Below are positions 18,537-41,008 of a stretch of 64,000 nt of DNA, one piece after another. A program made the translations under genes and the position numbers. This DNA is from an uncultured Alphaproteobacteria bacterium. Its GTDB lineage: Bacteria > Bacteroidota > Ignavibacteria > OLB7. The stretch is taken from positions 192,212 through 256,211 of the forward strand of contig CAYVWR010000006.1 of NCBI GenBank assembly GCA_964455525.1. Direction: 5' to 3'. Positions within the stretch are counted from its first letter, which is position 1; each line of letters starts with the position of its first letter. The notes beneath the pieces were generated by a model. It had not been told where the DNA came from. It worked only from the letters and a program-made list of their open reading frames with translations, and ran no database searches.

Positions 18537-21500
18537 ATGAAAGCAGCATCTACCTCTGTTCTGATGTTTTTTCTCCTGGCCTTCACTGCGATGGCACAGC
18601 CGAGGGTATCGTATATGATACCCGATATCGGTGCCCCCGGCATGAATACCTATGTGGAGATCATTGCACCGTTTGATGCCATCAACACGTTCGGAAGCAA
18701 TGGGCCATCGCTCAACAAAGGGGATGGCACCGATAACGTGAGCGTCACCCCGGCGAACCTTTCCGATACCAACAGGATTGTGGTAGGCCCGCTTGTGGTA
18801 AGCTGGGACGCACGGCTTATCGCCACCCAGATATTCGTAAAGCCTGGCGCTACGGTAGGCATAGTCCCCCTGCGTATCACGGTTGGCGGCCTGAGCACCG
18901 TTATCAACGAATTCGAGATCGTAACCCCGCAGATCCTTGGCACAGGAGGCACGGTCACCGGCGGTGGCATTATCGGCCAGGGAGGCTTCGGGGTCCGCTC
19001 CAAGCGTGGCGCCATGATCGTGGACAGGCTGGTGCTGGATGGGGGAGAATATCGGATCAGCACCCAGGACCCTGATCTCAGCACCCCCGGCAACCAGGGC
19101 TATCTTCCCTTTATCCTGATCTCCAAAGGGCTTCTCGCCATTACCCCGGGAACCACGCTTCGCGCCGATGGATCAACGCTTGATGCAGGCCCTGGCGGCG
19201 GCGGCGGCGGCGGTTTCTTCTGCGATAAACCGTTTGTTGGCACCGGCAATCCCGGGAGCAATGGCGGTGCCGGCTACACAGGCGGAGGGTCCGGCGGCAG
19301 AAACAACAACAATGGCACCGGCAGCTACAACGCGGTTGGAAACGGCAGCGGACAGGATGGGAAAAGCCTGAATGGAATCGATCCAGGCGGATATAATGCA
19401 TGCAGTTCCTGGGAAGGAGCCGGCGGAGGAACCGGACACCCGTTTGGTTCCAGTGCCCCGGCAGCGTGCCTCCCCGCATCCGGCACCTTTGGTGGAGGAA
19501 CTACCGCCGGCAATACAGGAGGAGGAGGGGGAGCAGGATATGGGTCGAACGGACAACCCGGATCGGGTCTGAATGCGTCCAACAACTATGGCCGCCAGCA
19601 TGGCAACCGGCAGGGAGTTCCTGTTGCCGGAGGTTCCGGGGGGGGCAGCGGCAATCCACAGTCGGCTGGCATCCTCGAAGCCTGTGCAGGTGCAGGTGGC
19701 GGCGGCGGCGGCGCAATCGCCCTGTTCTCGATGGAGACCCTGAACAATAACCTTGTCAGCGCCAAAGGAGGCGATGGCGGCAGCCGCTCCGGCGCAACCA
19801 GTGGCGCAGGAGGCGGAGCCGGATCGGGTGGCTATATCACGCTTGGCGCAAAGGTGGGATTTTCCGGCGGAGGCTCCGGCGACGTTACCGGCGGCGCAGG
19901 GGGCAATTCCAACGGCGGCAACGGTGCACCGGGCCGGGCACGCTTCGATGGCTTTACCCTAGGCGTACAGCCGACGTTCGATGGGCAGAGCGATCCCTAT
20001 ATCGGCCCCACGATCGATACCCTTACCTACTGGCAGTCCCCCACCATTCCTCTGCACGGCACATTCAATGGCAACGATGCCATCCGGGTGTATATGAAGA
20101 AGGATGGGGGCGGCTCCTGGCGCCAGGTGGTTCCCGATCCCACGTACGTTGGCCGCGAGTGGAACCAGCCGGTAACCGTTACCGAAGGGGAGGGACTCTA
20201 CTATTTTGTGGCAGTCCAGGTTGTGCCAACCCCTTCCACCGATCCCAACCAGAGCGAGCCGAGCTGGGTCTTCTCCCAGGCAGCAGCCAATATGATCTAT
20301 GTGGACCTGATCCCGAAGATCGAGGTGGATCGCACATCGCTCAGTTTTCCTGATGTTGCCTGCGAACACGAGATGTTTGACACCGTCAAGATCTGGAACA
20401 GCGGCGATGATACGCTGATCGTCACCAACCCGACGGTGACGGGCGATTTCTCTATCCTTCCGCCGTATGGCACAACCTTCAGGATCGCCCCGACGCTGGC
20501 ACCACCATACGACACAGTTCGTATGGTAATCCGCTTTGCGCCAACAACGCCGGGAGCCAAGACAGGAACCCTGACCCTGCCAAATAACGATCCCCGGACA
20601 GGAAAAAATCCGGTCCTGGTCCAGCTCACCGGCACCAAGCTGAATATTCAGTCCGATCTGTCGCCACGGATCATCGACTTCGGCGAGATCTGCCAGGATG
20701 CGATAACAACGGCATCCGCCCGGTTCAGCGTTACCGGCGACCTGAACGGGGCCATCAAATCTATCACACGTCTTGGCAGCGGCCCCACACCTTTTGCACT
20801 GATCGCCCCATTGCCGGCAAGCCTGCCGCTTGCGGTTGCCAGCGGTTCAACAAGCGACATCACCGTGGAGTTCAGACCAACGGCGACCGGAACGTTTATC
20901 GACTCCTTCCAGGTTGTGGTTGATCCGTGCGATAGCTCCTACGTGGTTGTGGTAACAGGCCGGGCGATCGAGACCGCCGTGCGCGTAATGCCCAACCCGC
21001 TTCCGTTCGGCAGTGTCCTTATCGGTGATCCAAGCCCCTCGATCGCCGTTACTATAGAGAATACAGGGAGCGATCCTGCGGTCATCACCGATATGTTCAT
21101 CCGTCCAGCAGGGGCGCCGTACACCGCCCCGACAGGGCTGATCGGCACATCGGTGGCACCGGGAGCTACAAATGCCGTCAGCGGCGCCGTGACCTTTACG
21201 CCAACAACGCCCGGCCTGGCAAACGCCGAACTGGTCGTCATCCTTGGAACGCTCTGTCCCGATACGGCTATCGTCACGATCGTGGGCAACGGGATACGTT
21301 GCGCCCAGCCGATCCCGGCACCGCTGAGCCTTGATTTCGAGCAGGTGCTGCTCGGCACTTCCAGGCTCGATACGGTGACGCTGACAAACAACTCTGCCGA
21401 TCCCATGGAGATCACCGAGATATCGGTCCCAGCGCCGTGGTCGATCGTTGAGCCGACTCCGCCGCTTACGCTTCTGCCCTCGGGATCGGTGCAGGTAGTG

Positions 21501-22673
21501 GTGCGATTCACTCCGGCCGATACACAGACGGTATCCGACAAGATCACCATCCGGCAGGCAACCCCCTGCCCGGACTCGCTTTTTGTGCTGGTAACCGGCA
21601 ATGGACGCTGCGCGACGGTACAATCGGATTCGCTTCAGATCGACTTCGGCAGCGTTATCGTGGGCGCCTCCGATGAACGGTTGTTCACGCTCACCAATCC
21701 ATCGGCCGGTCCAATGGATATCACGGAGATAACGGCAACGGCTCCATGGACGATCCTCCAGCCGACTCCCCCGCTAAGCCTGGCTCCTGGCGGCACGGTG
21801 CAGGTGCGGGTACGTTTCCAGCCGACCGATACGGTGCTTGCGACCGGCAGCCTGGTTATCAAACAGAATACTCCATGCCTCGACTCGATAACGGTACCAT
21901 TGCGTGGAACCGGACGGATCATCGTAGGAGGCCGGGCGCTGATCGTGATCCCACAGACGGTGCAAGGCTCCCCAGGCGATCGCATCGCCATCCCAATCGT
22001 TCTGCAGGAGGCACAACTGCTTCGTGAGTCGGAGGCAACGACCATCCGTGCAACCATGCGGTTCAATGGCACGCTCCTGTATCCGGTTGGCATTCGTTCC
22101 AAGGGAGAACCGTTCCAGAAGACATCGGCCGATGCGGCCACAACGGTCGGCAGCATCATATCGCGTCATCTGGTGAACGGCGAGCAGGTGCTGACGTTCG
22201 AGCTACAGAACAATCCGGTGCCGCTGGCGCCCGATACGCTTGGCTATATCGATGTCGTCGTGGCACTTGGCAATGCGCTGACAACGCCGATCAGCTTTGA
22301 TACGCTTTTCTGGACCGATGGAGAAGTGGAGCAGGAGCTGCGCGACGGCTTGTTCTCGCTTTCCGGTTACTGCGATGAGGGAGGTACAAGGCTCTTCCTC
22401 CAGAACGGCACATTCGGCATCAAGCAGGCAACGCCAAATCCGTTCAATCCATCGACTGAAATTTCGTTCGAGTCGATCGGAAGTGATAAAACTTCACTGG
22501 TGATTTACGATCTTTATGGCCGCCCCGTAGAGACGCTCGTCAATGAGGAGCCACTGCCTGCCGGGGTCTACACACGTCCATGGAATGCTCTGAATTTCCC
22601 ATCCGGCATCTACCATGCGGTGCTTACATCATCGAATCTCCGCAGCAGTCACCGGATCGTTTTGCTTAAATAG
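18537..22673 (+). CDS. giant T9SS-secreted surface protein with Gly-rich region and tandem PapD/ASH-like repeats
   Basis: Signal peptide. ~280-aa Gly/Ser/Asn low-complexity block (about 19140-19980). At least 5 tandem ~95-aa repeats of the type IDFG.V..G......TLTN.G..P..IT.I......F........L.PG (choice-of-anchor-D/ASH-like). C-terminal T9SS CTD (GIKQATPNPFNPSTEISFES...GIYHAVLTSSNLRSSHRIVLLK). Confidence 0.8.
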   Translation: MKAASTSVLMFFLLAFTAMAQPRVSYMIPDIGAPGMNTYVEIIAPFDAINTFGSNGPSLNKGDGTDNVSVTPANLSDTNRIVVGPLVVSWDARLIATQIFVKPGATVGIVPLRITVGGLSTVINEFEIVTPQILGTGGTVTGGGIIGQGGFGVRSKRGAMIVDRLVLDGGEYRISTQDPDLSTPGNQGYLPFILISKGLLAITPGTTLRADGSTLDAGPGGGGGGGFFCDKPFVGTGNPGSNGGAGYTGGGSGGRNNNNGTGSYNAVGNGSGQDGKSLNGIDPGGYNACSSWEGAGGGTGHPFGSSAPAACLPASGTFGGGTTAGNTGGGGGAGYGSNGQPGSGLNASNNYGRQHGNRQGVPVAGGSGGGSGNPQSAGILEACAGAGGGGGGAIALFSMETLNNNLVSAKGGDGGSRSGATSGAGGGAGSGGYITLGAKVGFSGGGSGDVTGGAGGNSNGGNGAPGRARFDGFTLGVQPTFDGQSDPYIGPTIDTLTYWQSPTIPLHGTFNGNDAIRVYMKKDGGGSWRQVVPDPTYVGREWNQPVTVTEGEGLYYFVAVQVVPTPSTDPNQSEPSWVFSQAAANMIYVDLIPKIEVDRTSLSFPDVACEHEMFDTVKIWNSGDDTLIVTNPTVTGDFSILPPYGTTFRIAPTLAPPYDTVRMVIRFAPTTPGAKTGTLTLPNNDPRTGKNPVLVQLTGTKLNIQSDLSPRIIDFGEICQDAITTASARFSVTGDLNGAIKSITRLGSGPTPFALIAPLPASLPLAVASGSTSDITVEFRPTATGTFIDSFQVVVDPCDSSYVVVVTGRAIETAVRVMPNPLPFGSVLIGDPSPSIAVTIENTGSDPAVITDMFIRPAGAPYTAPTGLIGTSVAPGATNAVSGAVTFTPTTPGLANAELVVILGTLCPDTAIVTIVGNGIRCAQPIPAPLSLDFEQVLLGTSRLDTVTLTNNSADPMEITEISVPAPWSIVEPTPPLTLLPSGSVQVVVRFTPADTQTVSDKITIRQATPCPDSLFVLVTGNGRCATVQSDSLQIDFGSVIVGASDERLFTLTNPSAGPMDITEITATAPWTILQPTPPLSLAPGGTVQVRVRFQPTDTVLATGSLVIKQNTPCLDSITVPLRGTGRIIVGGRALIVIPQTVQGSPGDRIAIPIVLQEAQLLRESEATTIRATMRFNGTLLYPVGIRSKGEPFQKTSADAATTVGSIISRHLVNGEQVLTFELQNNPVPLAPDTLGYIDVVVALGNALTTPISFDTLFWTDGEVEQELRDGLFSLSGYCDEGGTRLFLQNGTFGIKQATPNPFNPSTEISFESIGSDKTSLVIYDLYGRPVETLVNEEPLPAGVYTRPWNALNFPSGIYHAVLTSSNLRSSHRIVLLK

Positions 22674-22785
22674 AAGCTGAGTTGTAATCTTCGTCGTTGA
22701 TTACTCATCCGGCGTCCTGGCAGAAGCCAGGACGCCGCCAACGACGCCGCCCCCAATCATATCGACTATCTCAAATGGCTTCTCT

Positions 22786-24876
<2,091 letters not shown>

Positions 24877-25003
24877 CGCCTGATATTCGCAAGAAACAGC
24901 GACGGGCGGCCGGTTATCCGGTCGCCCGTTTGTATTCCGGCGATCGCCCATCCCCCTGCAATACGGCTTCGGCATGCCGAAGCATCTCCCCTCCGATCCT
25001 ATG

Positions 25004-26008
25004 CTACCGAAGCGCCAATGCCATCTCGATGATCTCGCGTGGGATGTCATCATGATTGGCGCCTGGAACGATCGCCTCGGCCAGAGGTACCCGGTTTGGC
25101 GGCGCTCCGGCATTGAATGCGCCAAAAAATGCGCTTCCCTGGCCGGCAAGCACCGAATTGACCATGGTATAGCCAAGCCAGTTTGCACGCAGCACATCGC
25201 TGATAGCCGCCTGTCCTCCCCTCTGGAAATACCCCATATCCACGGTCCTGATCTCGTGCCGACTGCTGCGACGCTCCAGCGTATGCGCCAGAAGTCCCCG
25301 TATCTCCTCAAGTGACTTTGGATATGCCTCACTGACGATAATGCGGGTATCACGGTCTCTGGATTCGATCATGTCGGCCACCATATCGAAGCTCACATCC
25401 TCGTCCGGACGGATAACATATTCGGCACCGGTAACGATGCCTGCATAGAACGGGAGAAACGCCGATTGCCGTCCCATCGACCCGATGATATAGACACGCC
25501 GGTGGGCCGATGCGGTATCGCGTATCCATTCCATCATCTCCAGACTCCGGCTTATGGCCGAGTAGAAGCCAAGCGACGTGCCATAAATGTTGGCGACGTC
25601 ATTATCGATCGAGGCAGCCGTGAACAGCACAGGAACAGAGCTGCCTGCCTGCTTGAGCATCGAATCGAGATCGTGTGCCGCATGCAGGCTCCCGTTTCCA
25701 CCGCAGGCAAAGAGCACATCAAATTCATCTTCGATGAAATTGGCAAGCACCCGCTGCTTCAGCGCAATGTCCTCACGCAGCTCCGGCACCCGCAATGTGC
25801 CCAGAATCGTCCCTCCCAGCGTGCTGATGCCCGCGGTGTCTATGGAAAAAAGCCTCCGGTAGCTCCGCTCGATAAGCCCGCGCCAGCCATCGAGAATGCC
25901 CCACACCTGGGCGCCGGGATGGAGGTTCAGCACCGAACGGGTGACCGCTCGGATGAATGCGTTCATGCCGGGGCAATCGCCCCCACCAGTTAGTATACCT
26001 ACTTTCAT
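25004..26008 (-). CDS. pfkA: 6-phosphofructokinase (PFK family A)
   Basis: MKVGILTGGGDCPGMNAFIRAV... and ...FACGGNGSLHAAHDL...IDNDV are PFK nucleotide/F6P-binding motifs. Start placed at MKVGIL (26006-26008). ATP versus PPi specificity cannot be read from the sequence alone. Confidence 0.85.
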   Translation of the reverse strand: MKVGILTGGGDCPGMNAFIRAVTRSVLNLHPGAQVWGILDGWRGLIERSYRRLFSIDTAGISTLGGTILGTLRVPELREDIALKQRVLANFIEDEFDVLFACGGNGSLHAAHDLDSMLKQAGSSVPVLFTAASIDNDVANIYGTSLGFYSAISRSLEMMEWIRDTASAHRRVYIIGSMGRQSAFLPFYAGIVTGAEYVIRPDEDVSFDMVADMIESRDRDTRIIVSEAYPKSLEEIRGLLAHTLERRSSRHEIRTVDMGYFQRGGQAAISDVLRANWLGYTMVNSVLAGQGSAFFGAFNAGAPPNRVPLAEAIVPGANHDDIPREIIEMALALR

Positions 26009-26500
26009 GCAGCCAAAGATGTCTTGAGTTAGAGAGCCGAACCGGACCGACGGCATCCGCCAACCACACCTACAGGCACGTCCCTGCCACGTGGGCAGCG
26101 TTGCGCACCATCGCATAGACCAATGGAGGTTGCAGCGCATACGCATCCCTGGGCACTCTCACGGCAGCAACAAACAGGATCACAATCCCGAGCAATCTTA
26201 TACCGCGATGGTGTCACCAGCCTGGCTCAGGGGGAGGCCTCGAAGAATGGTGCTTCGGAGAACCGAACGGGCCATGGTTTTGCGCAAGGTAGGCACACGG
26301 AGGGGCACTGCCAACCATTGCTTCCCTTTTTTATGAAGAAGCATCATCGCATCATATTCCACTAGCCGATCTGCCGATCGTAGCCCCGCACACTTTCGGT
26401 ACGGCCACCTCCTCTTCTGTTGCCTAACTTCGCAGCTTCATCAACAGCCGGTCGTGACCGGCCGCACCCGGCTGAACAAGAAACAACCGTTCCGAATCAG

Positions 26501-29014
26501 ATGGCAACACTCCCGATCGAGGAGGCGCTCCCAAGGTTGAAGGAGGCCCACCGCCTCCACCGCAATGTCGTCCTTCAGGCTCCCCCAGGCGCTGGAAAAA
26601 CCACCCGGGTGCCCATCGCACTTCTTGATGAGCCTTGGCTCCAGGGAGGCACCATAGTGATGCTGGAGCCTCGACGGCTTGCCGCACGCGCAGCCGCGCA
26701 ACGCATGGCCACAATGCTCGGCGAAAATGTTGGCGGCAGGGTCGGCTACCGAATGCGTATGGATAGCAAGATCGGTCCCACGACACGCATCGAAGTGCTC
26801 ACCGAAGGAGTGCTCACGCGTCGGCTGCAATCGGACCCTGCTCTGGAAGGGGTAGGGCTGGTGATCTTCGATGAATTCCATGAACGGAACCTTCAGGCGG
26901 ATCTGGGACTGGCCCTTACGCTCCAGTCGCAGCATCTTCTCCGTGAGGATCTTCGGATTCTTGTCATGTCGGCAACGCTGAACAGCGAGCCGGTGGCAGA
27001 CCTGCTGGGCAATGCCCCGATCGTAACAAGCCAGGGACAAAGCTACCCGGTTCAGACCCGCTATCTCCCCCGACGCCAGGATGAGCGGCTGGAGCGAGGC
27101 ATGGCCACGGCAGTGATGGCAGCCCTGGCACGCGAGCATGGAGATATCCTGGCCTTTCTTCCAGGCGCTGGAGAGATACGCAGGGTGGCCGAACTGCTGA
27201 AGGAAAGCCATCTGCCACCGGAGATAGCCGTTGCCCCGTTGTATGGCACTCTGCCACAGGAGGCACAGGACAACGCAATCGCTCCCAGCCCGCAAGGCAG
27301 CCGCAAAGTGGTGCTCGCTACGTCCATCGCAGAGACAAGCCTGACAATCGAAGGAATACAGGTTGTTGTGGATAGTGGCCTGATGCGCATCCCGCGGTTT
27401 TCTCCTCGCAGTGGCATGACCCGTCTGGAGACCACTCGTGTCTCGCGGGCATCGGCAGATCAACGCCGGGGCCGAGCCGGGCGTCTTGGTCCCGGCATCT
27501 GCTATCGACTCTGGAGCGAAGCAGAGCAGGAAGCGCTCCCCCCCTACAGCACGCCGGAGATCCTGGAGGCAGATCTGGCGCCGCTTGCGCTCGATCTGGC
27601 CGAGTGGGGGGCCACACCGGAGGATCTGCTCTGGCTCGATCCTCCATCGGCGCCATCGTATGCACAGGCACAAACCCTTCTTCATGAACTTGGGGCGCTC
27701 AGCGCCGCAGGTGCCCTCACACCACATGGGCGCCGGATGGCAAAACTCCCGGTTCATCCCCGTCTTGCCCATATGATGCTCAAGGGAGAAGCGCTCGGCC
27801 TTGGCGGGCTGGCTTGCGAGCTTGCTGCTCTGCTGAGCGAACGAGACCTGTTTCGGGCTGGCAACGGCCCCGGCGATGCCGACATCCGGCTTCGGCTCCA
27901 GGCACTTCGTGATCTCGACCGGGGAGTCCGTCTGGACCAACTCCGAACCCATCATCACCAGCTCGATACAGGCTCTGCCCGTAAAGCCCTTGCCGAGATA
28001 CGACGGTGGAAAAAAATAATGAAGGTGCAAGGCACAGAAGACGATATCGAGCGTTGCGGGCTGCTGCTGGCATTTGCCTATCCCGACAGGATCGGCGCTC
28101 GGCGCCCAGCCTCATCCGGGCGCTATCTCCTGCGAAATGGTGGTGGAGCATATTTCGCCGAGCCGCAACTTCTATCACAATCGCCCCATATCGTCGTCGC
28201 CGATCTGGATGGCAAGCGCCGAGAGAGCAGGATATTTCTTGCCGCACCAATGGCACTGGAGGATATCGAGGAACATTTCAATGAGGAGATCATCAGAGAG
28301 GATGTGATCTCATGGGATGCCGAGGCAGGAGCGGTGCGGGCACGGCGGCAGGAACGCCTGGGAGCCATCACCCTTCATGAACATCCTCTGGCAACGCCCG
28401 ATCCTGAAACCGTGGTAACGGTTCTGCTGGAAGCGATCGCTCACGAAGGACTTGCCATACTTCCCTGGAGAGGAGGAGCACGACGGCTCCAGGAACGGAT
28501 GATCTTTATGCACCATCATGATCGTTCATGGCCGGACGTTTCCAACGAAACATTGGCAGCCACACTCGATCGCTGGCTTGCACCACACCTCTATGGCATC
28601 CGCCGCCGCGACGATATGGCACGGCTCGATCTGGAACGCGTGCTTGGCGGCATGCTCTCGTGGGAGCAACGGAATATGCTCGATACCCATGTGCCAACGC
28701 ATCTTACCGTCCCAAGCGGCTCGAATATCCCGATCGACTATGAAAACCCGGAAGCCCCCGCGCTCTCGGTCAGGCTACAGGAGATGTTCGGCCTCACCGA
28801 AACACCTCGTATTGCGCGGGGCATGGTACCCCTTACGGTGCATCTCCTCTCGCCCGCACACCGCCCGGTACAAGTCACCCGCGATCTGGCCAATTTCTGG
28901 CGCACTACCTATTTCGAGGTAAAAAAGGATCTGAAGGGACGATATCCCAAGCATTACTGGCCGGATGATCCGCTTCAGGCAGTCCCGACCAATCGTGCAC
29001 GGCCACGGAGATAA
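26501..29014 (+). CDS. hrpB: ATP-dependent RNA helicase HrpB
   Basis: Walker A APPGAGKTT. DEFH box (VIFDEFHERN). HrpB-specific C-terminus YPKHYWPDDP. Length and order of motifs colinear with E. coli HrpB. Confidence 0.9.
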   Translation: MATLPIEEALPRLKEAHRLHRNVVLQAPPGAGKTTRVPIALLDEPWLQGGTIVMLEPRRLAARAAAQRMATMLGENVGGRVGYRMRMDSKIGPTTRIEVLTEGVLTRRLQSDPALEGVGLVIFDEFHERNLQADLGLALTLQSQHLLREDLRILVMSATLNSEPVADLLGNAPIVTSQGQSYPVQTRYLPRRQDERLERGMATAVMAALAREHGDILAFLPGAGEIRRVAELLKESHLPPEIAVAPLYGTLPQEAQDNAIAPSPQGSRKVVLATSIAETSLTIEGIQVVVDSGLMRIPRFSPRSGMTRLETTRVSRASADQRRGRAGRLGPGICYRLWSEAEQEALPPYSTPEILEADLAPLALDLAEWGATPEDLLWLDPPSAPSYAQAQTLLHELGALSAAGALTPHGRRMAKLPVHPRLAHMMLKGEALGLGGLACELAALLSERDLFRAGNGPGDADIRLRLQALRDLDRGVRLDQLRTHHHQLDTGSARKALAEIRRWKKIMKVQGTEDDIERCGLLLAFAYPDRIGARRPASSGRYLLRNGGGAYFAEPQLLSQSPHIVVADLDGKRRESRIFLAAPMALEDIEEHFNEEIIREDVISWDAEAGAVRARRQERLGAITLHEHPLATPDPETVVTVLLEAIAHEGLAILPWRGGARRLQERMIFMHHHDRSWPDVSNETLAATLDRWLAPHLYGIRRRDDMARLDLERVLGGMLSWEQRNMLDTHVPTHLTVPSGSNIPIDYENPEAPALSVRLQEMFGLTETPRIARGMVPLTVHLLSPAHRPVQVTRDLANFWRTTYFEVKKDLKGRYPKHYWPDDPLQAVPTNRARPRR

Positions 29015-29057
29015 CGGAGGCCATACCCGCACCCTCCATCGAAATATATCAGTGCGC

Positions 29058-29981: not shown

Positions 29982-30095
29982 CTGTTATGCCATGACCCGG
30001 ATTATGCCGATTTTTTGAGAGACGCATCGGATTTGCGCATGATCGCCACGCTGGCGGTCGGCAGAATCGGCACCGTTGGGTGGAAAGCGGCCGTT

Positions 30096-32425: not shown

Positions 32426-32472
32426 GCGGATACCACGTGGTCATTGGGGTGTAATGACCACGTGGTATCCGC
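32426..32472. terminator. 20-bp near-perfect palindrome (GCGGATACCACGTGGTCATT-GGGGTG-TAATGACCACGTGGTATCCGC); likely bidirectional terminator or protein-binding site
   Basis: Read directly from the sequence. It sits between the anti-sigma gene end (32513, minus) and the VOC gene. On the minus strand it is followed by ATTGCTTTTGTT. Confidence 0.5.
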
Positions 32473-32512
32473 ACAGAGAGGGCTTGCGGCCCCCTTTATC
32501 GCACAAGCGTTA

Positions 32513-33370
32513 CTAGCGCTGCTGGGGAGGGGTAAACTGCATCTTGACCTTCAGCGTATCATTGGTCTTACGTTGCAGGGTCGGTTCCTGCATCTGCAGG
32601 GCCGAGCGTTCCTGATCGACCTGCTGTGCAGAGAATTCCGCTGTGGTCTCAGAAACGGGCACGGTAGCCGGTGCCGCCTCTCCTGCCGCAACGATGCCCC
32701 CGATAGAGGAGGACTGCGCAACGGGCAGGGTTATCGAAGACGGGGTTCGTGCTGCTCGACCAAGCGAGCGGCCCTCCTGCCCTTCGGCGGCACTGACGTG
32801 CAGTGCCGCGCCTGGGTCTTCCGAAGGCATCATGGAGGCTTCCTGAGCGGCTTCATCCCCTCTCGGAAGCGTTGTATTGGGAGGAACTGCCTTGATAACC
32901 GGAGCCTTGGCGGCTCCGGTCTCTCTATTCAACTGCTGCTGTATCCCGGAAGATGGGGTGGTTTCCCCCGGAGCATTTCCTACAAACAAGGCAACTGCAA
33001 ACCCTGCAATCGTAAAACCGATTGCGGCAACCACCGCGATGATCCACTTGAACATCCCGGGACTCAACCCTGCCCCTCCACTACGCGGGAACACCTTTGC
33101 CGTGGGAGCTGCCGGAGTAGTAGTGGGTTCAGGACCGGCCACAGCAGTGACCTTTAGCATATCAACGACTTTGGAACGAAGCCCTGCATGCCGCGAGGGA
33201 ACCGCGTCGCGATGTTTCCTGATAGCGCTCTCGACGATTCGGTAGGCTTTCAGCGTTTGGCGCAGATTGTTGTCGACCGCTACCTGTATGAAAAATTCCT
33301 GTTCATCTGCGGAGTTCATCTCTCCGCTAAGGTAGCGTTCAACCCAACGTTCCTGTTCCGTGCGCGTCAT
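32513..33370 (-). CDS. anti-sigma factor (single-pass membrane protein)
   Basis: Start ATG overlaps the sigma gene stop (ATGA). N-terminal cytoplasmic segment MTRTEQERWVERYLSGEM...EQEFF. Single TM (WIIAVVAAIGFTIAGFAVALFV). Pro/Thr/Ala-rich periplasmic region. Confidence 0.7.
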   Translation of the reverse strand: MTRTEQERWVERYLSGEMNSADEQEFFIQVAVDNNLRQTLKAYRIVESAIRKHRDAVPSRHAGLRSKVVDMLKVTAVAGPEPTTTPAAPTAKVFPRSGGAGLSPGMFKWIIAVVAAIGFTIAGFAVALFVGNAPGETTPSSGIQQQLNRETGAAKAPVIKAVPPNTTLPRGDEAAQEASMMPSEDPGAALHVSAAEGQEGRSLGRAARTPSSITLPVAQSSSIGGIVAAGEAAPATVPVSETTAEFSAQQVDQERSALQMQEPTLQRKTNDTLKVKMQFTPPQQR

Positions 33371-34026
33371 GGTGCCTCCCTGGGGATATCTTGAGCGCCC
33401 TTCTGATTGTTGTCGTCGTCCAATCCTATCATAACCGATATAATTCTTCCAAGGTGAGCTCTTGCCCGCCATGCGCGAGTACGAACCGCACCAACCGGCT
33501 CGCCGAGCATCTCAGCAATTTCATCAAAACGATAGCCAGAATATGCGTGGAGCACCAACACCTCCCGTTGAGCATCAGGAAGGTGTGGCAACGCGAGAAT
33601 CACCAACTCCTCCATATGCGATAGTTCTGGTACATGGGCAACAGGATGGCTGGCTTCCGAGATCTCATCCAGATCTGCGTGACGGCGCTCTCTACGAATA
33701 TTGTCCAGACAGAGGTTTCTTGCAATCGTCAACATCAGACCGAGGGGGTTCTGGACAGTTGTCCGCTCGTTACTGCGGAGCCGGATCACCCGTTCCCACA
33801 TCTCCTGCGTAAGATCCTCTGCCTGCTGCTCATTGCGCGAGAACTGCAAACAGTAGAGGTATAATCGATGATTATGGCGATCGAACATTTCGACGAGCGC
33901 TACATCATCACCTTCCAGGAAACGGGTAAATAGCTCCGCATCGCTGCTAGATGGTTTCGACTGGTTTGTCTCCTTATCATGCTTCACAGCCTTGCGCGAG
34001 GAGAGGATGTGGTTGTACCAGATCAT
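33367..34026 (-). CDS. ECF-type RNA polymerase sigma-70 factor
   Basis: Region 2 (DLTQEMWERV...) and region 4 HTH (YSGYRFDEIAEMLGEPVGAVRTRAWRARAHL). Confidence 0.8.
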   Translation of the reverse strand: MIWYNHILSSRKAVKHDKETNQSKPSSSDAELFTRFLEGDDVALVEMFDRHNHRLYLYCLQFSRNEQQAEDLTQEMWERVIRLRSNERTTVQNPLGLMLTIARNLCLDNIRRERRHADLDEISEASHPVAHVPELSHMEELVILALPHLPDAQREVLVLHAYSGYRFDEIAEMLGEPVGAVRTRAWRARAHLGRIISVMIGLDDDNNQKGAQDIPREAP

Positions 34027-34384
34027 AGGCTTTAAGAGAGTCTTCCCAGGTATAACGCACCGGAATTCTCAAACATCACCATTGAAACTTTTTTTCTCGA
34101 AGTGTGATGTTTAGATTCGTTGTAACGTTCTATGGAAGTACAGCATTCTGTGTGTCTATGCGTAACGATACTCTTGTGATGTGCTACCCTGGATCGAGTA
34201 CTGGGGTTCTGGCTGTTGGACCCGACATGCTAGTGCAGCACTCCGGGGGCCTTGCTACCTCCAACGTGCTTCGTGGCTTCTTTCACCCTACGTTCTGCGC
34301 TCCTTTCCATAGTGAAATGAGCCGGTTTATCATGTGCACCCTTGATGATAAGGCGTGCTCAACCATGTGATCAGAGGCTTCTCG

Positions 34385-37300
34385 ATGAAGGTACGTTACT
34401 CTCCTGCACAAGGCTTGTACGCTTTCATGATGGCACTTGCCATCTCGGTGACCGCGTTCGCGCAACAGCAAGCCACACCCCGGCAGTTGCTGAACATCGG
34501 CGCAGTGCGGTTCACCGAGAATCGGGGGCAGATCGTCAACACCCCAGGCGATCCGTCCCCCGATGTTCTTTATAGCACCGCCTCGCGCAATACAGCCATT
34601 TACTTCCGAAATTCCGGCATCTCCTATGTCTTCACCCGAGCCGGTGCCGCCGATAACCAGCCCCCCTCCGACCGGCTGGTCTCTCGGGAAGCCGGCCAGG
34701 CCGTTATATCGGCCTATCGTATGGATATGGAGCTTCTTGGCGCCAATCCTTCGGTGAGAGTTGTTCCACAAGAGGAGTTGGACGAGCAAAGCACCTACTA
34801 TTCCCCCCATTTCCCTGAAGGCATCGCCCGTCTCCGCAATTTCGGCAGGATTGTCTACCATGATATCTATCCGGCGATTGATCTTCTATTCTATGGCAAC
34901 GAGGATGGGTTGCACTATGAGTTTGTAGTACGCCCCGGCGGCAATGCCGCCGATATCCGGCTACGGTATATCGGAACAGATGGCGTTCGGATGGCTTCTC
35001 AGGGCACTGTGATGGCATCCACCCCTCTTGGCACGGTTGAACAGAGGCTCATCAACAGCTATCAGGCTGCCGAGCCTGCTGCACTGCAACGCAACACCAC
35101 AGGACACCCAACCCCTGTTCGCGGCTCCTACAAGCTCGGGAACAACGGTATATCCTTCACGATAGGCTCCTATGATCGCAGCCAACCGCTGGTGATAGCT
35201 GGCTCGCTGTTGTTTTCCACCGATTACGGCGACGACACCCCCTCTGGAACTTCCACCACGATCCCTTATGAGCAGGATCGGCGCCCTGAGAGTGCCAACA
35301 CCACTATTCCGTCAAGGCCTGGCATGGTACAGACGATCCTGGTAAGGCCAGAGGGTGATGATGGCAGTATGACCAGGCTCTCCGCCGATGATTCCCGCCC
35401 GGAAGGCCCATCGGACAGTGGTATCCGGCTGGCAAACGGCCTCTCCCCCGGCCACAGTATCAGCAATGCCATGAGGCTGGCCGACAGTATATCGGCGGAA
35501 ATGATGGCTGGCGATGTCGTGCCGCTTGGGAATGGAGGATCGCAGAGCAGCGGCAGCGACGCAACAAGCCTGTCGCTCGCGATGAATCCGATGATTACCA
35601 TCAAGGGCGCAACGGAGATCTGCAACGGCGACTCAACGATCCTTTCGGCCCCCTCCGGCTTCCAGTCCTATCGCTGGTCAACCGGCGATACAACCCAGGA
35701 GATCGTTGTCTATCAGTCGGGAAAGTATCGGGCTACGGTCGGCAGCAACGGATCGTACGGAATCACCGAGACCGTAGAGATCATCGTTCACCCGGTTCCG
35801 CGAAGGGTGATTGGCGCCATCGGCTCCACTGAACTCTGCGAGGGAGACAGCGTTCTTCTGACTCCGGGCAAGGACTTTATCTCCTACCGCTGGTCAAACG
35901 GCGCTACCTCGCCCCTTATCGTTGTCCGCGAGCCAGGACGCTTCACCGTCTCCTTTGTCGACATCAACGGCTGTGTTGGCAGGACCGACACGCTTGTGGT
36001 GACACTGCGCCCAAAACCAAGGCCGACGATAACCGTGGAGGGCAACCTTACCTTTTGCACCGGTAACAGCACGGTGCTGGACGCAGGAGCAGGATACCAT
36101 GAGTACCTCTGGTCAACCGGCGAGCGGACGCAACGGATCACCGTTCGTTCCTCCGGCAGCTATTCGGTTCGTGTTGCCAATGAAGCAGGCTGCTGGGGCG
36201 AAGCGCCACCGGTCTCGGTGGTAGCGCTGCCGGCACCGCATTTCCGTATAGCAGCGCTTCTGCCAACCGCATTCTGCGCAGGCGACAGCACAGTACTTAC
36301 CGCCTCGAACGATTTTGCACAGTATAGATGGTCGACCGGTGATACAACCAAGACCATTACCGTGCGAACGCAGGGAACATATACATTGACCGCATTCAAT
36401 GCCAATGGCTGCGGTTCAAGCGCATCAATCAGCGTACTCATCGCCCCCGATCCAAATCCAACAGTCATCACCAATCGTTCGCCCCGCATCTGCGCCGGTG
36501 AAACGGTTGTGCTCGACGCAGGCGAAGGATATAGCTCCTACCGCTGGTCAACCGGCCAGAGGACTCAACGTATCGTTGTAAGCGAGCCGGGACTCTATAA
36601 TGTCTCCGTTATCAACAGCCTCGGCTGCTCCGGCACCTCCAACATGGTCAAGGTGGAGGTCCTGCCAAAACCCATTGTCACGTTAAACGGCGCCCTGGCC
36701 GTCTGTGTGAACTCGAAGGCTACCTACACCGTGCCGCTGGCCATGGGGGTAAACTATGAATGGTATGCAACAGGAGGAGGCGCCACCATCGAATCGGGCA
36801 ACGGCACCAATACCGTCGTTGTGCGATGGCGGACAAAGGGAACAGGCAGGGTACATCTTCTGGCCCGGTATCCCGGTTCAGCCTGTACATTCAGCACCAC
36901 CATGGATGTGGCCGTAGGAGAGGCGCTCACACCAATGATCACGGCCGATGGACCAACAACCCTCTGCTCCGGCAGACAGGTCAGGCTCGATGCAGGATTG
37001 GGATATGATAGATACCTCTGGTCCAATGGCGCAACCACACAGAGCATTATCGTAGATCGTGCAGGGCGCTACTCCGTCACAGTCGCCAATGAAGGCGAGT
37101 GCTCCGGCACCTCCGCCCCCGTCATCGTAGAGCAGGCATCCCTGCCGGAGCCGAGCATCGTGGCACTCGGCAGCACGACTTTTTGCGGTGGAGGGAGCGT
37201 AACGCTTGACGCTGGCCCCGGCTATACGCGCTATCTCTGGTCGAACGGCGCCACAACGCGCCAGATCACCGTCGATGAGGCCAATACCTACTGGGTGAGC

Positions 37301-38956
37301 GTAACAACCGCAGGCAACTGCTCAGCGGTATCACCAAGCATCACAACCACTGTGGCTGCCGCTCCGGCACCAAAGATCACTGGGCCAACGGCGGTATGCC
37401 GCAACATCCGGGCAACCTACAGAACCCCCACCGTGCCAGGCCATCGGTATTACTGGACCGTGGTGGGCGGAGAGCTTCTGACCCCGCAGGGACTTCCCAT
37501 AGCTACCGTCCAGTGGGAAACCCCTGGTTCCGGCACGCTGGAACTTCGCCAGGAATCACCCGACGGAGCCTGTGTTGCAATAACCCAGGATATGATCGCG
37601 ATTGCCGACAGCATTGTTCCAGAGATCGAGGTAATCGGGTCGACAGCGATCTGCGCCGGTGGAAATGTCACGCTTGATGCAGGCCCCGGCTATACATCCT
37701 ATCTCTGGTCCAATGGCGCAACCACACAGGCGATCACCGTGGACCGCGCCGCCTCGTACTGGGTATCGGTCAGGGACGAGGGTGGCTGCGGAGGAACGTC
37801 GCGGCCGCTCGCCGTTACGATGAAACAGTTGGCATCCCCAGCAGTGACGGCGCTCGGCCCAACCGAGTTCTGCGAGGGCGCATCGGTAACGCTCAGTGCG
37901 CCGGAAGGCTTTGCGTACTACCGCTGGTCGAACGGCAGCACCATGCGCCAGATCACGGTTGCAGCAACCGGCACCTATAGCGTTGTCCTTGTAGACTCCA
38001 CCGGGTGCGACGCTGCATCGCTGCCGATGGATGTGATAGTCTACCCACGGCCTGAAAGACCGGATATCAAGGTGAGCGGAAACATCCTGATGGCCCCGGA
38101 TGCGGCCAGCTACGGATGGGCGCTGAATGGGGTGCCGATCCCAGGTGAGACATCACAACAGCTTATCGCCCGGGACACCGGAGCCTATACGGTCACGATC
38201 ACAAACCCGGCAGGCTGCATCAATACATCGGCACCGTTTATCAACCGTGCTACCAGTACACACGCCTCTCGTACCGTCTGGATCGACACGGCCAGCAGCC
38301 ATGTCGGCGACCGCTTCCGTCTGACGATGCATGTGCATCCTCCACTTGAGCACGACGACCAGATCAACGGCTTCACGGCATGGATCAGGGTTCCGGCCCA
38401 CTCTCTGTTCCTCCATCATGTGATCTCTCCCGATGCCGACCACACTGGCGACCCTGCGGTTGCAGGGGTTGAAGCACATGATCTTGTGGTCATCAACCGT
38501 CCGGCATCCAGTCCGATAATGACTGGTAGCAGGCTCTTCCAGATGGAGCTTGAAGGACTTTCCACAGCCGTACCATACAATACGATCAGGATCGACAGTG
38601 TCATGTTTGCGGATGGCACCATAGGGATGGCCACGGCTCACGGCACCGTGCTCCTGAGCGGCTGTGATGTCGGCAAAAACTTCGATTTCGGCAAACGTGC
38701 TCACCTGCAATCGATTTATCCGAACCCCGTCAGCCATGAAGCGGCGATCGCCTATCGCGCTCCCCTCGGCTCCTCGCCGGTAGTTCGCCTTATCAATACA
38801 ATGGGCCAGGGAGTCCTGGTCCTCTCACTTGCAACGGGAACCGGCGAAACGCAGGAGATGAGATTGCAACTTGGTGAGGTGGCCTCCGGCATCTATACGC
38901 TGGAACTGCGCGACGGCGGCGAGATCAGCACAATGCCGCTCGTCATCCAGAAGTAA
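34385..38956 (+). CDS. giant T9SS-secreted adhesin-like protein with ~13 tandem SprB-type Cys repeats
   Basis: Signal peptide MKVRYSPAQGLYAFMMALAISVTAFAQQ. Tandem ~75-80-aa repeats with 2 Cys and the core Y(R/L)WS(T/N)G(D/A)TTQ.I.V...G.Y.V...N..GC (for example at 35670, 35890, 36110, 36330, 36545, 37015, 37240, 37700, 37920). C-terminal T9SS CTD (IYPNPVSHEAAIAY...SGIYTLELRDGGEISTMPLVIQK). Confidence 0.8.
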   Translation: MKVRYSPAQGLYAFMMALAISVTAFAQQQATPRQLLNIGAVRFTENRGQIVNTPGDPSPDVLYSTASRNTAIYFRNSGISYVFTRAGAADNQPPSDRLVSREAGQAVISAYRMDMELLGANPSVRVVPQEELDEQSTYYSPHFPEGIARLRNFGRIVYHDIYPAIDLLFYGNEDGLHYEFVVRPGGNAADIRLRYIGTDGVRMASQGTVMASTPLGTVEQRLINSYQAAEPAALQRNTTGHPTPVRGSYKLGNNGISFTIGSYDRSQPLVIAGSLLFSTDYGDDTPSGTSTTIPYEQDRRPESANTTIPSRPGMVQTILVRPEGDDGSMTRLSADDSRPEGPSDSGIRLANGLSPGHSISNAMRLADSISAEMMAGDVVPLGNGGSQSSGSDATSLSLAMNPMITIKGATEICNGDSTILSAPSGFQSYRWSTGDTTQEIVVYQSGKYRATVGSNGSYGITETVEIIVHPVPRRVIGAIGSTELCEGDSVLLTPGKDFISYRWSNGATSPLIVVREPGRFTVSFVDINGCVGRTDTLVVTLRPKPRPTITVEGNLTFCTGNSTVLDAGAGYHEYLWSTGERTQRITVRSSGSYSVRVANEAGCWGEAPPVSVVALPAPHFRIAALLPTAFCAGDSTVLTASNDFAQYRWSTGDTTKTITVRTQGTYTLTAFNANGCGSSASISVLIAPDPNPTVITNRSPRICAGETVVLDAGEGYSSYRWSTGQRTQRIVVSEPGLYNVSVINSLGCSGTSNMVKVEVLPKPIVTLNGALAVCVNSKATYTVPLAMGVNYEWYATGGGATIESGNGTNTVVVRWRTKGTGRVHLLARYPGSACTFSTTMDVAVGEALTPMITADGPTTLCSGRQVRLDAGLGYDRYLWSNGATTQSIIVDRAGRYSVTVANEGECSGTSAPVIVEQASLPEPSIVALGSTTFCGGGSVTLDAGPGYTRYLWSNGATTRQITVDEANTYWVSVTTAGNCSAVSPSITTTVAAAPAPKITGPTAVCRNIRATYRTPTVPGHRYYWTVVGGELLTPQGLPIATVQWETPGSGTLELRQESPDGACVAITQDMIAIADSIVPEIEVIGSTAICAGGNVTLDAGPGYTSYLWSNGATTQAITVDRAASYWVSVRDEGGCGGTSRPLAVTMKQLASPAVTALGPTEFCEGASVTLSAPEGFAYYRWSNGSTMRQITVAATGTYSVVLVDSTGCDAASLPMDVIVYPRPERPDIKVSGNILMAPDAASYGWALNGVPIPGETSQQLIARDTGAYTVTITNPAGCINTSAPFINRATSTHASRTVWIDTASSHVGDRFRLTMHVHPPLEHDDQINGFTAWIRVPAHSLFLHHVISPDADHTGDPAVAGVEAHDLVVINRPASSPIMTGSRLFQMELEGLSTAVPYNTIRIDSVMFADGTIGMATAHGTVLLSGCDVGKNFDFGKRAHLQSIYPNPVSHEAAIAYRAPLGSSPVVRLINTMGQGVLVLSLATGTGETQEMRLQLGEVASGIYTLELRDGGEISTMPLVIQK

Positions 38957-38971
38957 CCGGACGTCTCGGTC

Positions 38972-41008
38972 ATGAAGATTGCACGGGCATGCTCGATTCT
39001 GGCGCTTGCGGTTGCGGCAACAGCATCGGTGCAGGCCCAGAATAATAGTCCCGCACCGATTCTCCTCGGACCATTTGTCGGGGTTGATCTGGCCCTTGAG
39101 TCGGGGCGCATTCCGGTCTACGCATTCTCCGCCGACTGTGGAGAATTCACATCCGGCATGGCTAATATCGTCACGGCCGGCGCGATCCTGACCTATTCAT
39201 CCCTCTTTGCTCCCCGCCTTGGACTCTCGCTGGCAGGAAGTGTCTCCAGCTCCACCGGCATCTTTACCACAGCGCCAACCGGACCCACATCAATCGTCGA
39301 GCAGGGGGTTCTCATCCAGCTCGAACGCGAGTACAGGCTTCGCCACAAGGCGCTCCGATTCACGGCCGATCTGCTCGGCACGTTCCGCCCGCTCACTCAC
39401 CTTGAACTTGCCGCTGGATTATCGGTCGGCTACCAGCCAGCCATATCATTCTCGCAGACCGATAACATCACAGGCCCGGATAACTATAGCTTTCCCGATG
39501 GGCAAAGCTCGCACACCATGCTCGACGGAAAGAAGCTGAGCAGTTCTCTTGTTCAGTTCGGCCCGCGCATCCGTGTCGCCTATCGGCTCCCGGTTGGCCC
39601 ACGGTTATGGCTACAACCCGCGCTCACCGCCCATATGGATCTGGCTTCAGTGGTGCGCGAGGCGAGGTGGCAACGGTTTGGAGCCGGTGCAGCGATAGCG
39701 GTTCTCTTCGATCTCACGCCGGAGCAGCCAGCAATGCCCCAGCCACATGCCGTAGAGGAGAAATCGAAGCCTGTCCCCCTGTTGAAAGCAGCCATCGAGC
39801 TTTATGGCATCGACGACCACGACCAACGCCGTCCCGTGGCAACGGTCAAGGTGGACGAGATACTTTATCGCCAGCATACTCCGCTCCTTCCGATCATCTA
39901 TTTCGATCAGGCCGCACTAGAGTTGCCAACACGATATCAGGGGCTACCAGTGGCCGGAACCGATACTCTCAAGCTGGAGAAGCTTGCCGCAAAAAGTATC
40001 GTGGAGATGCAGCATTACACACTCGACGTGATCGGCTGGCGGCTCCGCGCCGACACAAACGCACATATCACCCTTATCGGTTCCACATCCCAGGATGAAG
40101 CGGCGGCGCTTGCACGGGGACGAGCTGAAACCGTACGTTCATATCTGGAACGGACCTGGGGGATCGGCCATGAGCGAATGACGATCAATGATGGGAACGG
40201 AAATCTCCAGCACTCCAATGAGGCTACCGAGGATGGCCGTGCCGATAACCGCCGCGTGGAAATCATCGCCAGCGTCCCCGAGATCACATCATCGCTGGTT
40301 ACCGAGCAGATCGTCCGCAATTTCAATCCACCCGTTATCCGCATTCTCCCCTCGTTCGAGTCGGAGGCTGGCGTTCGGAACTGGGCCGTCACGATCTCGC
40401 AGGAGACGAATATCATCGCCCGCTACTCGAACCGTGACGATCAGACCATGGATGACTCGGAGTTTACATGGAGCATCATCCATAGCAAGATCGACTCGGC
40501 GCTGGCGCCACTGGTGGCAGAGCTTGTTGTGGAGGATTCGGCCGGTACCAAGGCCAGGGCGCTGACATATATACCGCTGGAGCTTGAGAAACAGCTACGA
40601 GTGGTGGATGGGGCGGTAGAGCATCAGGGAAATCACGAGCAGATCGGCCATACCCTGGTAGCATTCAACTACAACTCCGCCGAGCTTAAGGCCTCGCACG
40701 AGGCCACACTGGATCAGGTCGCACGTCAAGTACATGATAGCGCCCAGATCACCATTGTAGGCTATACCGACCGCATTGGCGATGAGCGTTATAATGCCGG
40801 GCTTTCCACGCAGAGAGCCGAGCAGGTGGCATCCGCACTCCGAGCAAGACTTCAAAGGCGTGGCATCCAGGGTGTCAGGATCAAGGCAAACGGCGCCGGC
40901 ATGGAAACCGAGCGATTTACCAACCACCTTCCGGAAGGCCGCACGCTTTCCAGAGGAGTCAGCATCATAATCGAGCAAAAGATCGTGGCCGACGCACCCG
41001 GACAGTAA
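38972..41008 (+). CDS. OmpA-like outer-membrane protein: N-terminal barrel plus two OmpA_C domains (paralog of 22786..24876)
   Basis: Signal peptide MKIARACSILALAVAATASVQA. Homologous linker (TVKVDEILYRQHTPLLPIIYFDQAALELPTRYQ vs [34 protein letters not shown]). Two OmpA_C domains (ITLIGSTSQDEAAALARGRAE...; ITIVGYTDRIGDERYNAGLSTQRAEQVASAL). Confidence 0.75.
   Translation: MKIARACSILALAVAATASVQAQNNSPAPILLGPFVGVDLALESGRIPVYAFSADCGEFTSGMANIVTAGAILTYSSLFAPRLGLSLAGSVSSSTGIFTTAPTGPTSIVEQGVLIQLEREYRLRHKALRFTADLLGTFRPLTHLELAAGLSVGYQPAISFSQTDNITGPDNYSFPDGQSSHTMLDGKKLSSSLVQFGPRIRVAYRLPVGPRLWLQPALTAHMDLASVVREARWQRFGAGAAIAVLFDLTPEQPAMPQPHAVEEKSKPVPLLKAAIELYGIDDHDQRRPVATVKVDEILYRQHTPLLPIIYFDQAALELPTRYQGLPVAGTDTLKLEKLAAKSIVEMQHYTLDVIGWRLRADTNAHITLIGSTSQDEAAALARGRAETVRSYLERTWGIGHERMTINDGNGNLQHSNEATEDGRADNRRVEIIASVPEITSSLVTEQIVRNFNPPVIRILPSFESEAGVRNWAVTISQETNIIARYSNRDDQTMDDSEFTWSIIHSKIDSALAPLVAELVVEDSAGTKARALTYIPLELEKQLRVVDGAVEHQGNHEQIGHTLVAFNYNSAELKASHEATLDQVARQVHDSAQITIVGYTDRIGDERYNAGLSTQRAEQVASALRARLQRRGIQGVRIKANGAGMETERFTNHLPEGRTLSRGVSIIIEQKIVADAPGQ

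Follow-up and report, generated by a model that had tools for sequence, protein, structure and literature searches.

T9SS (type IX secretion system) cargo is known to be retained at the cell surface by two routes only, namely attachment to anionic lipopolysaccharide (A-LPS) and PorP/SprF carriers with or without PorE. As a rule, PorU cleaves cargo with a type A C-terminal sorting domain (CTD) and joins it to A-LPS. In the second route, the PorP/SprF barrel has 14 strands (PMC9143113), and type B cargo is held in static complexes anchored to the wall, together with PorP-like and PorE-like partners, as proposed where a PorE-like protein is encoded alongside (PMC9143113, PMC12618676). The present analysis concerns a two-gene module found twice in a 64,000-nucleotide (nt) stretch of contig CAYVWR010000006.1 (hereafter, the window) from an uncultured bacterium of the Ignavibacteria lineage. 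In each copy, a gene for a T9SS cargo is followed on the same strand by a gene for an OmpA-like barrel protein, here called the follower. The module is marked by its two architectures, recurrent adjacency, a cassette specific to the paired cargos, co-diversification and reciprocal conservation of Cys residues with one co-loss. With a probability of about 0.55, judged from sequence-based evidence, the cargo and the follower would be a cognate pair of surface cargo and peptidoglycan-tied anchor. The four genes are as follows:

18537..22673, plus strand: cargo 1 gene, 1378 amino acids (aa), from the open reading frame (ORF) listing and translation
22786..24876, plus strand: follower 1 gene, 696-aa OmpA-like partner
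34385..38956, plus strand: cargo 2 gene, 1523 aa counted from ATG
38972..41008, plus strand: follower 2 gene, 678-aa paralog with the same architecture as follower 1

The ORF listing confirmed these four positions and the strand as given in the initial annotation, with spacers of 112 nt (22674-22785) between the cargo 1 stop codon and follower 1 and of 15 nt (38957-38971) between the cargo 2 stop codon and follower 2. The cargo 2 reading frame opens with GTG at 34355 (1533 aa); the ATG at 34385 yields a normal signal peptide.

The two followers align from end to end (27% identity, E = 5e-69), with an internal repeat also visible, and both match the Pfam OmpA family (PF00691) with 75.4 and 71.9 bits against a gathering threshold (GA) of 27.2; two OmpA_C-like domains are present in each protein. 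An AlphaFold2 (AF2) model of follower 1, built on 79 homologues, reached a mean predicted local distance difference test (pLDDT) value of 92.4 and gives the order of signal peptide, barrel, proline run, small beta unit, OmpA_C domain 1, beta-sandwich and OmpA_C domain 2:

22918..23610 (aa 45-275), plus strand: outer-membrane beta-barrel of about 10 strands, counted on the DSSP string only, without coordinates
23617..23685 (aa 278-300), plus strand: proline run, disordered periplasmic spacer (pLDDT below 50 for aa 289-297)
23788..24195 (about aa 335-470), plus strand: OmpA_C-like domain 1 (profile and AF2)
24214..24504 (aa 477-573), plus strand: beta-sandwich between the OmpA_C domains (AF2)
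24538..24864 (aa 585-693), plus strand: OmpA_C domain 2 (profiles and fold match; invariant D631 and R646)

The full-length alignment, the profiles and the model thus bear out the earlier description of the followers as paralogs with a signal peptide, a beta-rich N-terminal domain, a Pro-rich linker (a run of 23 proline residues in follower 1) and two OmpA_C domains. The "conserved linker block" proposed along with it is not a linker and corresponds to the first strand of OmpA_C domain 1, according to the AF2 model and the OmpA_C consensus. D631 and R646 of domain 2 are what we take, from the OmpA_C domains of AbOmpA and Pal, to be the canonical pair binding the diaminopimelate (DAP) of peptidoglycan. 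Domain 1 keeps the conserved Arg (R419) and has Ala or Ser at the canonical Asp position, as judged by manual alignment to domain 2. Two further Cys recur across the family near follower 1 residues 402 and 682, in the periplasmic OmpA_C domains (50 and 35 of 78 members, respectively), and might form an inter-domain disulfide; both window followers lack them.

The barrel is some 230 residues long, and in the DSSP string of the model some of its hairpins are very long. Its best structural matches are small 8-10-strand barrels of the OmpA/OprF/OmpW class, not 14-strand barrels, and follower 1 also gives a weak match to OMP_b-brl_2. Assignment of the followers to PorP/SprF was rejected: Pfam scans gave no match to PorP_SprF (TIGR03519 / PF11751) even at E ≤ 10 with the isolated N-terminal domains, the family is absent among the NCBIfam matches listed for the followers (25 of 27-28 families), the barrel is not 14-stranded and the cargo CTDs are type A only. 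PorE (NF052230) was rejected as well, its matches scoring 44.5 and 31.2 bits where the cutoff is 600 and being confined to the OmpA_C part. The followers contain no TPR or propeller domains, and their signal peptides belong to type I, being cleaved at A|Q and lacking a lipobox. A small N-terminal barrel joined to the OmpA_C fold is the layout of the OmpA/OprF family, and both are found in the followers. Since there is no PorP/SprF profile match and the PorE match covers OmpA_C only, the follower is, by its modelled fold, an OmpA/OprF-type protein with a duplicated, predicted peptidoglycan-binding module. The proposal that an OmpA-like barrel stands here in the place of PorP/SprF is therefore upheld. 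An exact-sequence look-up of follower 1 returned no database record.

Cargo 1 consists of a signal peptide, a Gly-rich N-terminal region, five immunoglobulin-like (Ig) repeats, a cohesin-like domain and a type A CTD; the repeats score as choice-of-anchor-D domains (169.5 bits) and are assigned by Pfam to Ig domains of the ASH/HYDIN/Cep192 type. Cargo 2 has an N-terminal DUF7948 domain, about 11 PKD_6/Ig_7 repeats with two Cys each, a cohesin-like domain and again a type A CTD. Their mapped parts are as follows:

21861..22424 (aa 1109-1296), plus strand: cargo 1 pre-CTD cohesin-like domain, 174 bits with a local hidden Markov model (HMM); terminal motif SLSGYCDEGGTRL
22431..22661 (aa 1299-1375), plus strand: cargo 1 T9SS type A C-terminal sorting domain, TIGR04183 26.2 bits (cutoff 23)
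34511-35197, plus strand: cargo 2 N-terminal DUF7948, profile match of 157 bits
38171..38710 (aa 1273-1452, GTG numbering), plus strand: cargo 2 pre-CTD cohesin-like domain, divergent, local HMM 83 bits; motif LLSGCDVG
38714..38950, plus strand: cargo 2 T9SS type A CTD, TIGR04183 32.4 bits (cutoff 23), Pfam Por_Secre_tail 29.1 bits against GA 27

Both CTDs score above the TIGR04183 cutoff, and Pfam and NCBIfam scans found no match to type B CTD or SprB profiles in either cargo, in agreement with the type A assignment first made. The label "SprB-like" for cargo 2 was discarded: no profile supports it, Pfam reads the protein as DUF7948, PKD_6 and Ig_7, and the CTD is type A, not type B. Searching for homologues of the last 279 aa of cargo 1 retrieved mostly proteins of PF18962, the generic type A CTD. 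In all four proteins the signal peptide has Ala as its last residue, with Gln next (AMA|Q, SSA|Q, AFA|Q and VQA|Q; 18537-18602, 22786-22869, 34385-34470 and 38972-39040), and Q28 is almost invariant across the follower family. Such Ala|Gln ends fit the habit of Bacteroidota to cyclise an N-terminal Gln to pyroglutamate after cleavage by signal peptidase I.

The occurrence of the pairing outside the window was studied in 79 loci from Kapabacteria and Ignavibacteria, together with the window. The follower family is large and restricted to one clade. At E ≤ 1e-10 it comprised 268 proteins among the candidates tested, its named members are annotated as "OmpA family protein" from Kapaibacterium, Kapabacteria or Ignavibacteria, and relatives are encoded in at least 572 stretches of the species-representative genome set. 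The loci were analysed in two ways, by greedy ORF calls with curated profiles (TIGR04183) and a local CTD HMM, and by a six-frame HMM-only scan independent of gene calls, in which a cargo C-terminus had to lie on the same strand within 500 nt upstream. With the first method, TIGR04183 matched 33 of 61 genes immediately upstream and 17 of 55 immediately downstream of followers; the local HMM identified 35 upstream and 16 downstream neighbours, all on the strand of the follower. The resulting CTD rate upstream of followers (35 of the 61 scorable) compares with 73/651 for other genes of the same loci (Fisher 6.6e-16). The six-frame scan found 83 followers, 52 of them paired: 40 with a cargo upstream and 12 more with a cargo immediately downstream. 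Adjacency to T9SS cargo, expected for other genomes from the initial annotation, is thus enriched and extends over about 20 of 27 follower sequence clusters (55% distance).

Many cargo-follower pairs show a 4-nt stop/start overlap, and independent database gene calls concur with ours, placing the end of the cargo 18 nt before the follower in L080/L081. A giant cargo, part of the original description, is not required, as the paired cargos range from 284 to 3006 aa. Grouping the cargos into families by BLAST single linkage was uninformative, for common Ig/PKD repeats merged all 50 into one component. The arrangement itself varies. In L080 (1-7982), two tandem cassette-bearing cargos lie upstream of one follower; in L003, L008 and L009 a follower has a cargo on both sides; in L056 a second cargo lies between two followers, downstream of the first. 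One follower can hence be shared by several cargos. L082 is a standalone follower. In three metagenome-assembled genomes (MAGs; L015 3489-9941, L051 3955-9825 and L055), a 1956-2150-aa DUF7948/Cys-repeat protein lies directly upstream of the follower; it has neither the cohesin-like cassette nor a CTD, and its ORF runs 35-58 nt into the follower in another frame. A deletion, a frameshift or some other arrangement could account for this. Loci L004, L005, L009, L018, L020, L023, L049 and others come from MAGs labelled Alphaproteobacteria, Hyphomicrobiales, Chromatiales, Armatimonadota, Patescibacteria or Didemnitutus, and the presence there of modules of the Kapabacteria/Ignavibacteria type likely reflects mislabelled or chimeric bins.

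When the C-termini of the adjoining cargos are aligned, a conserved domain of about 170 aa is seen right before the CTD. This cassette ends in the motif L.G.C.EGG.R-L, some 15-20 residues before the CTD. An HMM seeded with cargo 1 and iterated without reference to adjacency detected the cassette in 47 of 48 adjacent cargos, compared with 9 of 64 other CTD proteins of the same loci (Fisher 6.8e-21). Five of these nine are truly adjacent and were missed by the gene calls or the list of scored followers (L005, L010, L022, L032 and L065), three stand first in a tandem of two cargos (L045, L048 and L066), and the ninth, in L012, has its follower about 4 kb downstream. The window holds internal negative controls, since its unpaired T9SS CTD proteins at 14122..15507 (+) and 59285..63439 (-) have neither cassette nor follower. 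The former (461 aa) is succeeded by an S41/CtpB-type peptidase at 15784-17457, and the latter (1384 aa) carries Reelin-B/Big_7-like repeats.

An exhaustive phmmer search found 392 cassette clusters (50% identity, E ≤ 1e-3); a homologue search with the pre-CTD alignment had returned a single match. Among full-length phmmer matches, the cassette ends about 82 residues before the C-terminus and is therefore regarded as a fixed unit. Minimal cargos consisting only of a signal peptide, the cassette and the CTD still adjoin a follower (L019, 284 aa, ending 13 nt before it, and L072, 314 aa), which suggests that the cassette itself is the functional unit.

Searched against the PDB, the cassette family profile matched cohesins (2vn5_A, 9e-6; 1g1k_A, 1.4e-5), with about 120 of 165 positions covered, and cohesins account for 17 of the top 25 matches. 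The Pfam Cohesin profile (PF00963) matches 12 of 48 cassettes (best E 1e-6); the cargo 1 cassette alone gives an E of 0.13, and the window copies stay below threshold. Because of these sub-threshold copies and a poor structural model (see below), the domain is named cohesin-like and is not a proven cohesin. The profile similarity to cellulosomal cohesins nevertheless raises the idea that the domain recruits dockerin-bearing or other ligands into a scaffoldin-like surface assembly, to which the OmpA-like neighbour would contribute only indirectly; a proposal for Fibrobacter, in which OmpA proteins anchor surface complexes (PMC6851124), points the same way. The followers contain no dockerin, the other proteins of the loci not having been searched for this domain, and the follower is the simplest candidate ligand since the cassette is membrane-proximal and strictly coupled to the follower gene. 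We regard a scaffoldin-like assembly as very improbable.

In order to compare the evolution of the two partners, distances between barrels were correlated with distances between cassettes. The Mantel r was 0.79, a value reached by none of 2000 permutations, and the nearest barrel neighbour was also the nearest cassette neighbour in 22 of 43 pairs. Together, the correlation and the matching neighbours indicate that module copies diversify as units. Cognate pairing and co-diversification also mirror the pairs of SprF-like proteins and type B cargos, in which the barrel is required for secretion (PMC12618676), and one follower serves tandem cargos in at least one locus. The follower could accordingly be a dedicated T9SS carrier or shuttle, like PorV or PorP/SprF, that collects its cargo from the translocon for export and is not primarily a static anchor. 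This appears unlikely, as the barrel is small and of the OmpA class rather than a 14-strand FadL/PorV/PorP-type one, the two predicted peptidoglycan-binding domains argue for an immobile protein, and the cargo CTDs are type A, which in the systems studied so far are handled by PorV (PMC12618676).

Each partner also carries one conserved Cys, otherwise unpaired, on the side where the two proteins would meet:

22371..22373, plus strand: cargo 1 Cys1279, 13th Cys, sole Cys of the last 260 residues, 20 residues before the start of the CTD model
22993..22995, plus strand: follower 1 Cys70, lying in loop 1 (aa 62-77), with no other Cys in the mature protein
38663-38665, plus strand: cargo 2 conserved Cys, 23rd Cys, 97 residues from the C-terminus
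39137-39139, plus strand: follower 2 Cys56 in loop 1, likewise without a second Cys in the mature protein

The number of strands in an outer-membrane barrel is even. As the C-terminus of the barrel leads to periplasmic domains and the strand number is even, we infer that loop 1, between the first two barrel strands, is extracellular. This loop holds the motif LPGxPxCCPxF, conserved in followers. Of the 78 locus followers, 77 have at least one Cys in loop 1, as do all 114 full-length proteins among 120 database homologues (86 with CC and 28 with a single C). No other extracellular Cys is conserved in the followers; the other recurrent Cys occur only in the periplasmic OmpA_C domains. In the cargos, the motif Cys is placed 97-107 residues before the C-terminus, with the cassette of L062 as the sole exception, and in many cases no second Cys occurs within the last 260 residues. 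The follower of L062 is the only one lacking a loop-1 Cys and has no extracellular Cys, and its cargo has no Cys in the last ~390 residues. The chance of both losses coinciding is about 0.02 (one loss per side, some 52 pairs). No further case of co-loss was found among the 120 database homologues, in which every full-length member keeps the loop-1 Cys. The window cargos have odd numbers of Cys (13 and 23).

Intermolecular disulfides fed by twin-Cys donors and joining SprF and PorG to GldK have been demonstrated experimentally (PMC12635249). According to a remark in the same paper, OmpA proteins of Porphyromonas gingivalis and Tannerella forsythia assemble into oligomers joined by disulfides. 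The latter, together with the generic OmpA/OprF-like architecture and the fact that about a third of the family members stand alone and keep the CC motif, would agree with the follower being a general OmpA-type tether between the outer membrane and peptidoglycan, or an envelope-integrity protein, co-expressed without cargo contact and using its loop-1 Cys for homo-oligomers. Such a general tether leaves unexplained why pairing is limited to cassette cargos (47/48 vs 9/64), why several paralogs occur per genome, each beside a different cargo, why barrels and cassettes co-diversify and why both Cys are lost jointly in L062. It is therefore judged improbable.

Anchoring of the cargo by its cognate follower remains the preferred reading. 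We infer from the genomics and from domain logic the anchoring function, the physical binding, and that the partner anchors rather than helps export. The cargo, a surface protein and probably an adhesin, would be exported by Sec and then across the outer membrane by the T9SS via its type A CTD. Its membrane-proximal cohesin-like domain would dock on the extracellular face of the neighbouring barrel, which in turn would be fixed to peptidoglycan through the Pro-rich spacer and the two OmpA_C domains. A disulfide between the Cys of the cargo motif L.G.C.EGG.R and the loop-1 Cys of the barrel may lock the contact, a step that we consider tentative and rather doubtful. The vicinal CC of most followers could act as a pre-formed donor disulfide, by the same logic as the twin-Cys tails of SprF and PorG. 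The outcome would be a surface protein mechanically coupled across the outer membrane to the cell wall.

Several observations weigh against this reading. In the six-frame scan, 31 of 83 followers have no adjoining cargo, five of them having too little upstream sequence, and these unpaired followers still keep the loop-1 CC motif, so the Cys may serve another role; the disulfide-linked OmpA oligomers mentioned above also point in that direction. Attachment to A-LPS by PorU being usual for type A cargo, a second anchor is not obviously needed. Shared ancestry raises both the Mantel r and the numbers of adjacent pairs, and the cluster-level spread is for this reason the fairer measure of adjacency. 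The Cys co-loss rests on a single event, and Cys parity over all cargos (26 odd vs 23 even) is uninformative as a test for an unpaired Cys. Pfam scans, including those of isolated N-terminal domains, found no dockerin in the followers that would pair with a cohesin-like domain. Lastly, the AF2 model of the C-terminal 275 aa of the cargo is poor (pLDDT 51.6, from a shallow six-sequence alignment).

The initial annotation had suggested a dedicated anchor or partner system. The two outcomes named there as speaking against it, a lack of enriched adjacency to T9SS cargo and a generic OmpA barrel scattered at random over the genome, were not observed. The dedicated partner is reinforced by features absent from that annotation, namely the specificity of the cassette to paired cargos, the co-diversification and the reciprocal conserved Cys, and anchoring itself is still the conditional part of the proposal. 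Its claim that such a system had not been described agrees with our full-text literature searches, which did not cover all journals: no account of the module was found, nor a paper joining T9SS with cohesin-like domains, describing this module in Kapabacteria/Ignavibacteria or combining OmpA with a type A CTD.

The spacer between cargo 1 and follower 1 contains a structured element:

22692..22746, plus strand: GC-rich RNA hairpin between cargo 1 and follower 1, inner 12-bp stem at 22710-22737 (minimum free energy -38.5 kcal/mol, z -3.9)

No U-tract follows this hairpin and no terminator-like site was called in the gap between the two genes. A corresponding stem, differing by compensatory changes, is shared by L001 and further close loci (in L001, UCCUGG/CCAGGA is changed to CCCCGG/CCGGGG). 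Wherever a spacer is present (the window, L001-L007, L032 and L074), a strong, GC-rich hairpin is found just past the cargo stop codon, usually without a U-tract. The hairpin may be a partial terminator or an mRNA-stabilising element setting the cargo-to-follower ratio. A weak terminator-like site lies after follower 2 (41022-41039). A gene for an extracytoplasmic function (ECF)-type sigma factor (33367-34026, minus strand) is located divergently upstream of cargo 2, and a histidine kinase gene (41079-42353, plus strand) starts 70 nt past follower 2; both are possible local regulators. The region 54001-56000 has a GC-content of 0.45, compared with about 0.57 elsewhere, encodes three small minus-strand ORFs of 173, 159 and 161 aa, and may be foreign DNA. 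Rfam and tRNA scans of the window gave no matches.

The module suggests that a deep-branching part of the Bacteroidota/FCB (Fibrobacterota-Chlorobiota-Bacteroidota) group met the same surface-retention problem with unrelated parts. It provides a testable pairing rule, whereby the presence of the cassette predicts the partner next door. The cassette is a sizeable unannotated domain family and would carry the cohesin fold over to surface anchoring in Gram-negative bacteria; cassette and partner could also be used for displaying proteins on the cell surface. The candidate extracellular disulfide lock echoes the recently found SprF/PorG-GldK disulfides. A third route of T9SS cargo attachment, neither A-LPS nor PorP/SprF, in which the cassette cargo is covalently disulfide-tied to its cognate peptidoglycan-bolted barrel and CC acts as the donor disulfide where no Dsb enzymes are present, is at this stage a speculative possibility, and would amount to a Gram-negative counterpart, in function, of wall-anchored adhesins.

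Compared with known systems, the followers resemble the OmpA/OprF family, including Pgm6/7 of P. gingivalis, in the small N-terminal barrel and C-terminal OmpA_C domain, and also in the Cys-mediated intermolecular links reported for the P. gingivalis and T. forsythia proteins, as cited in PMC12635249. They differ from this family in their duplicated OmpA_C with a beta-sandwich in between, their length of about 700 aa, their restriction to one clade and the LPGxPxCCPxF motif in loop 1, as well as in their synteny and co-diversification with a specific cargo cassette. In the SprF-GldK and PorG-GldK pairs, outer-membrane barrels likewise use a conserved twin- or single-Cys motif for a disulfide with a partner (PMC12635249). 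However, those Cys are located in periplasmic C-terminal tails and bond to the GldK/PorK lipoprotein, whereas the follower Cys lies in a loop predicted to be extracellular, and the hypothetical bond would be made with the secreted cargo.

The anchoring scaffoldins of Gram-positive cellulosomes, which combine cohesin with surface layer homology (SLH) modules, offer another parallel, as a cohesin-fold module docks surface proteins to a wall-bound anchor. The likeness of the cassette to cellulosome cohesins is at the profile level only (E about 1e-5), and the module differs in that no dockerin is present, the cohesin-like domain is on the cargo and not on the anchor, and the setting is a Gram-negative envelope with T9SS export.

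The closest parallel is found in the PorP/SprF-PorE-type B systems (P. gingivalis PorP-PorE-PG1035 and Flavobacterium johnsoniae Fjoh_3952/3951/3950), where the cargo gene also adjoins the gene or genes for its cognate barrel and OmpA_C module, and where the proposed outcome is likewise a static surface protein held through the outer membrane to the cell wall. Unlike in these systems, the barrel and OmpA_C are fused here in one polypeptide, and the barrel is a small one of the OmpA/OprF class with no PorP_SprF match. The follower lacks the tetratricopeptide repeats (TPR), beta-propeller and lipoprotein signal of PorE, and the cargo has a type A CTD and an additional cohesin-like adaptor domain in place of a type B CTD. 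By analogy, the module is thus best seen not as a new principle but as one that appears to follow the logic of the type B cargo/PorP-PorE route with every part different.

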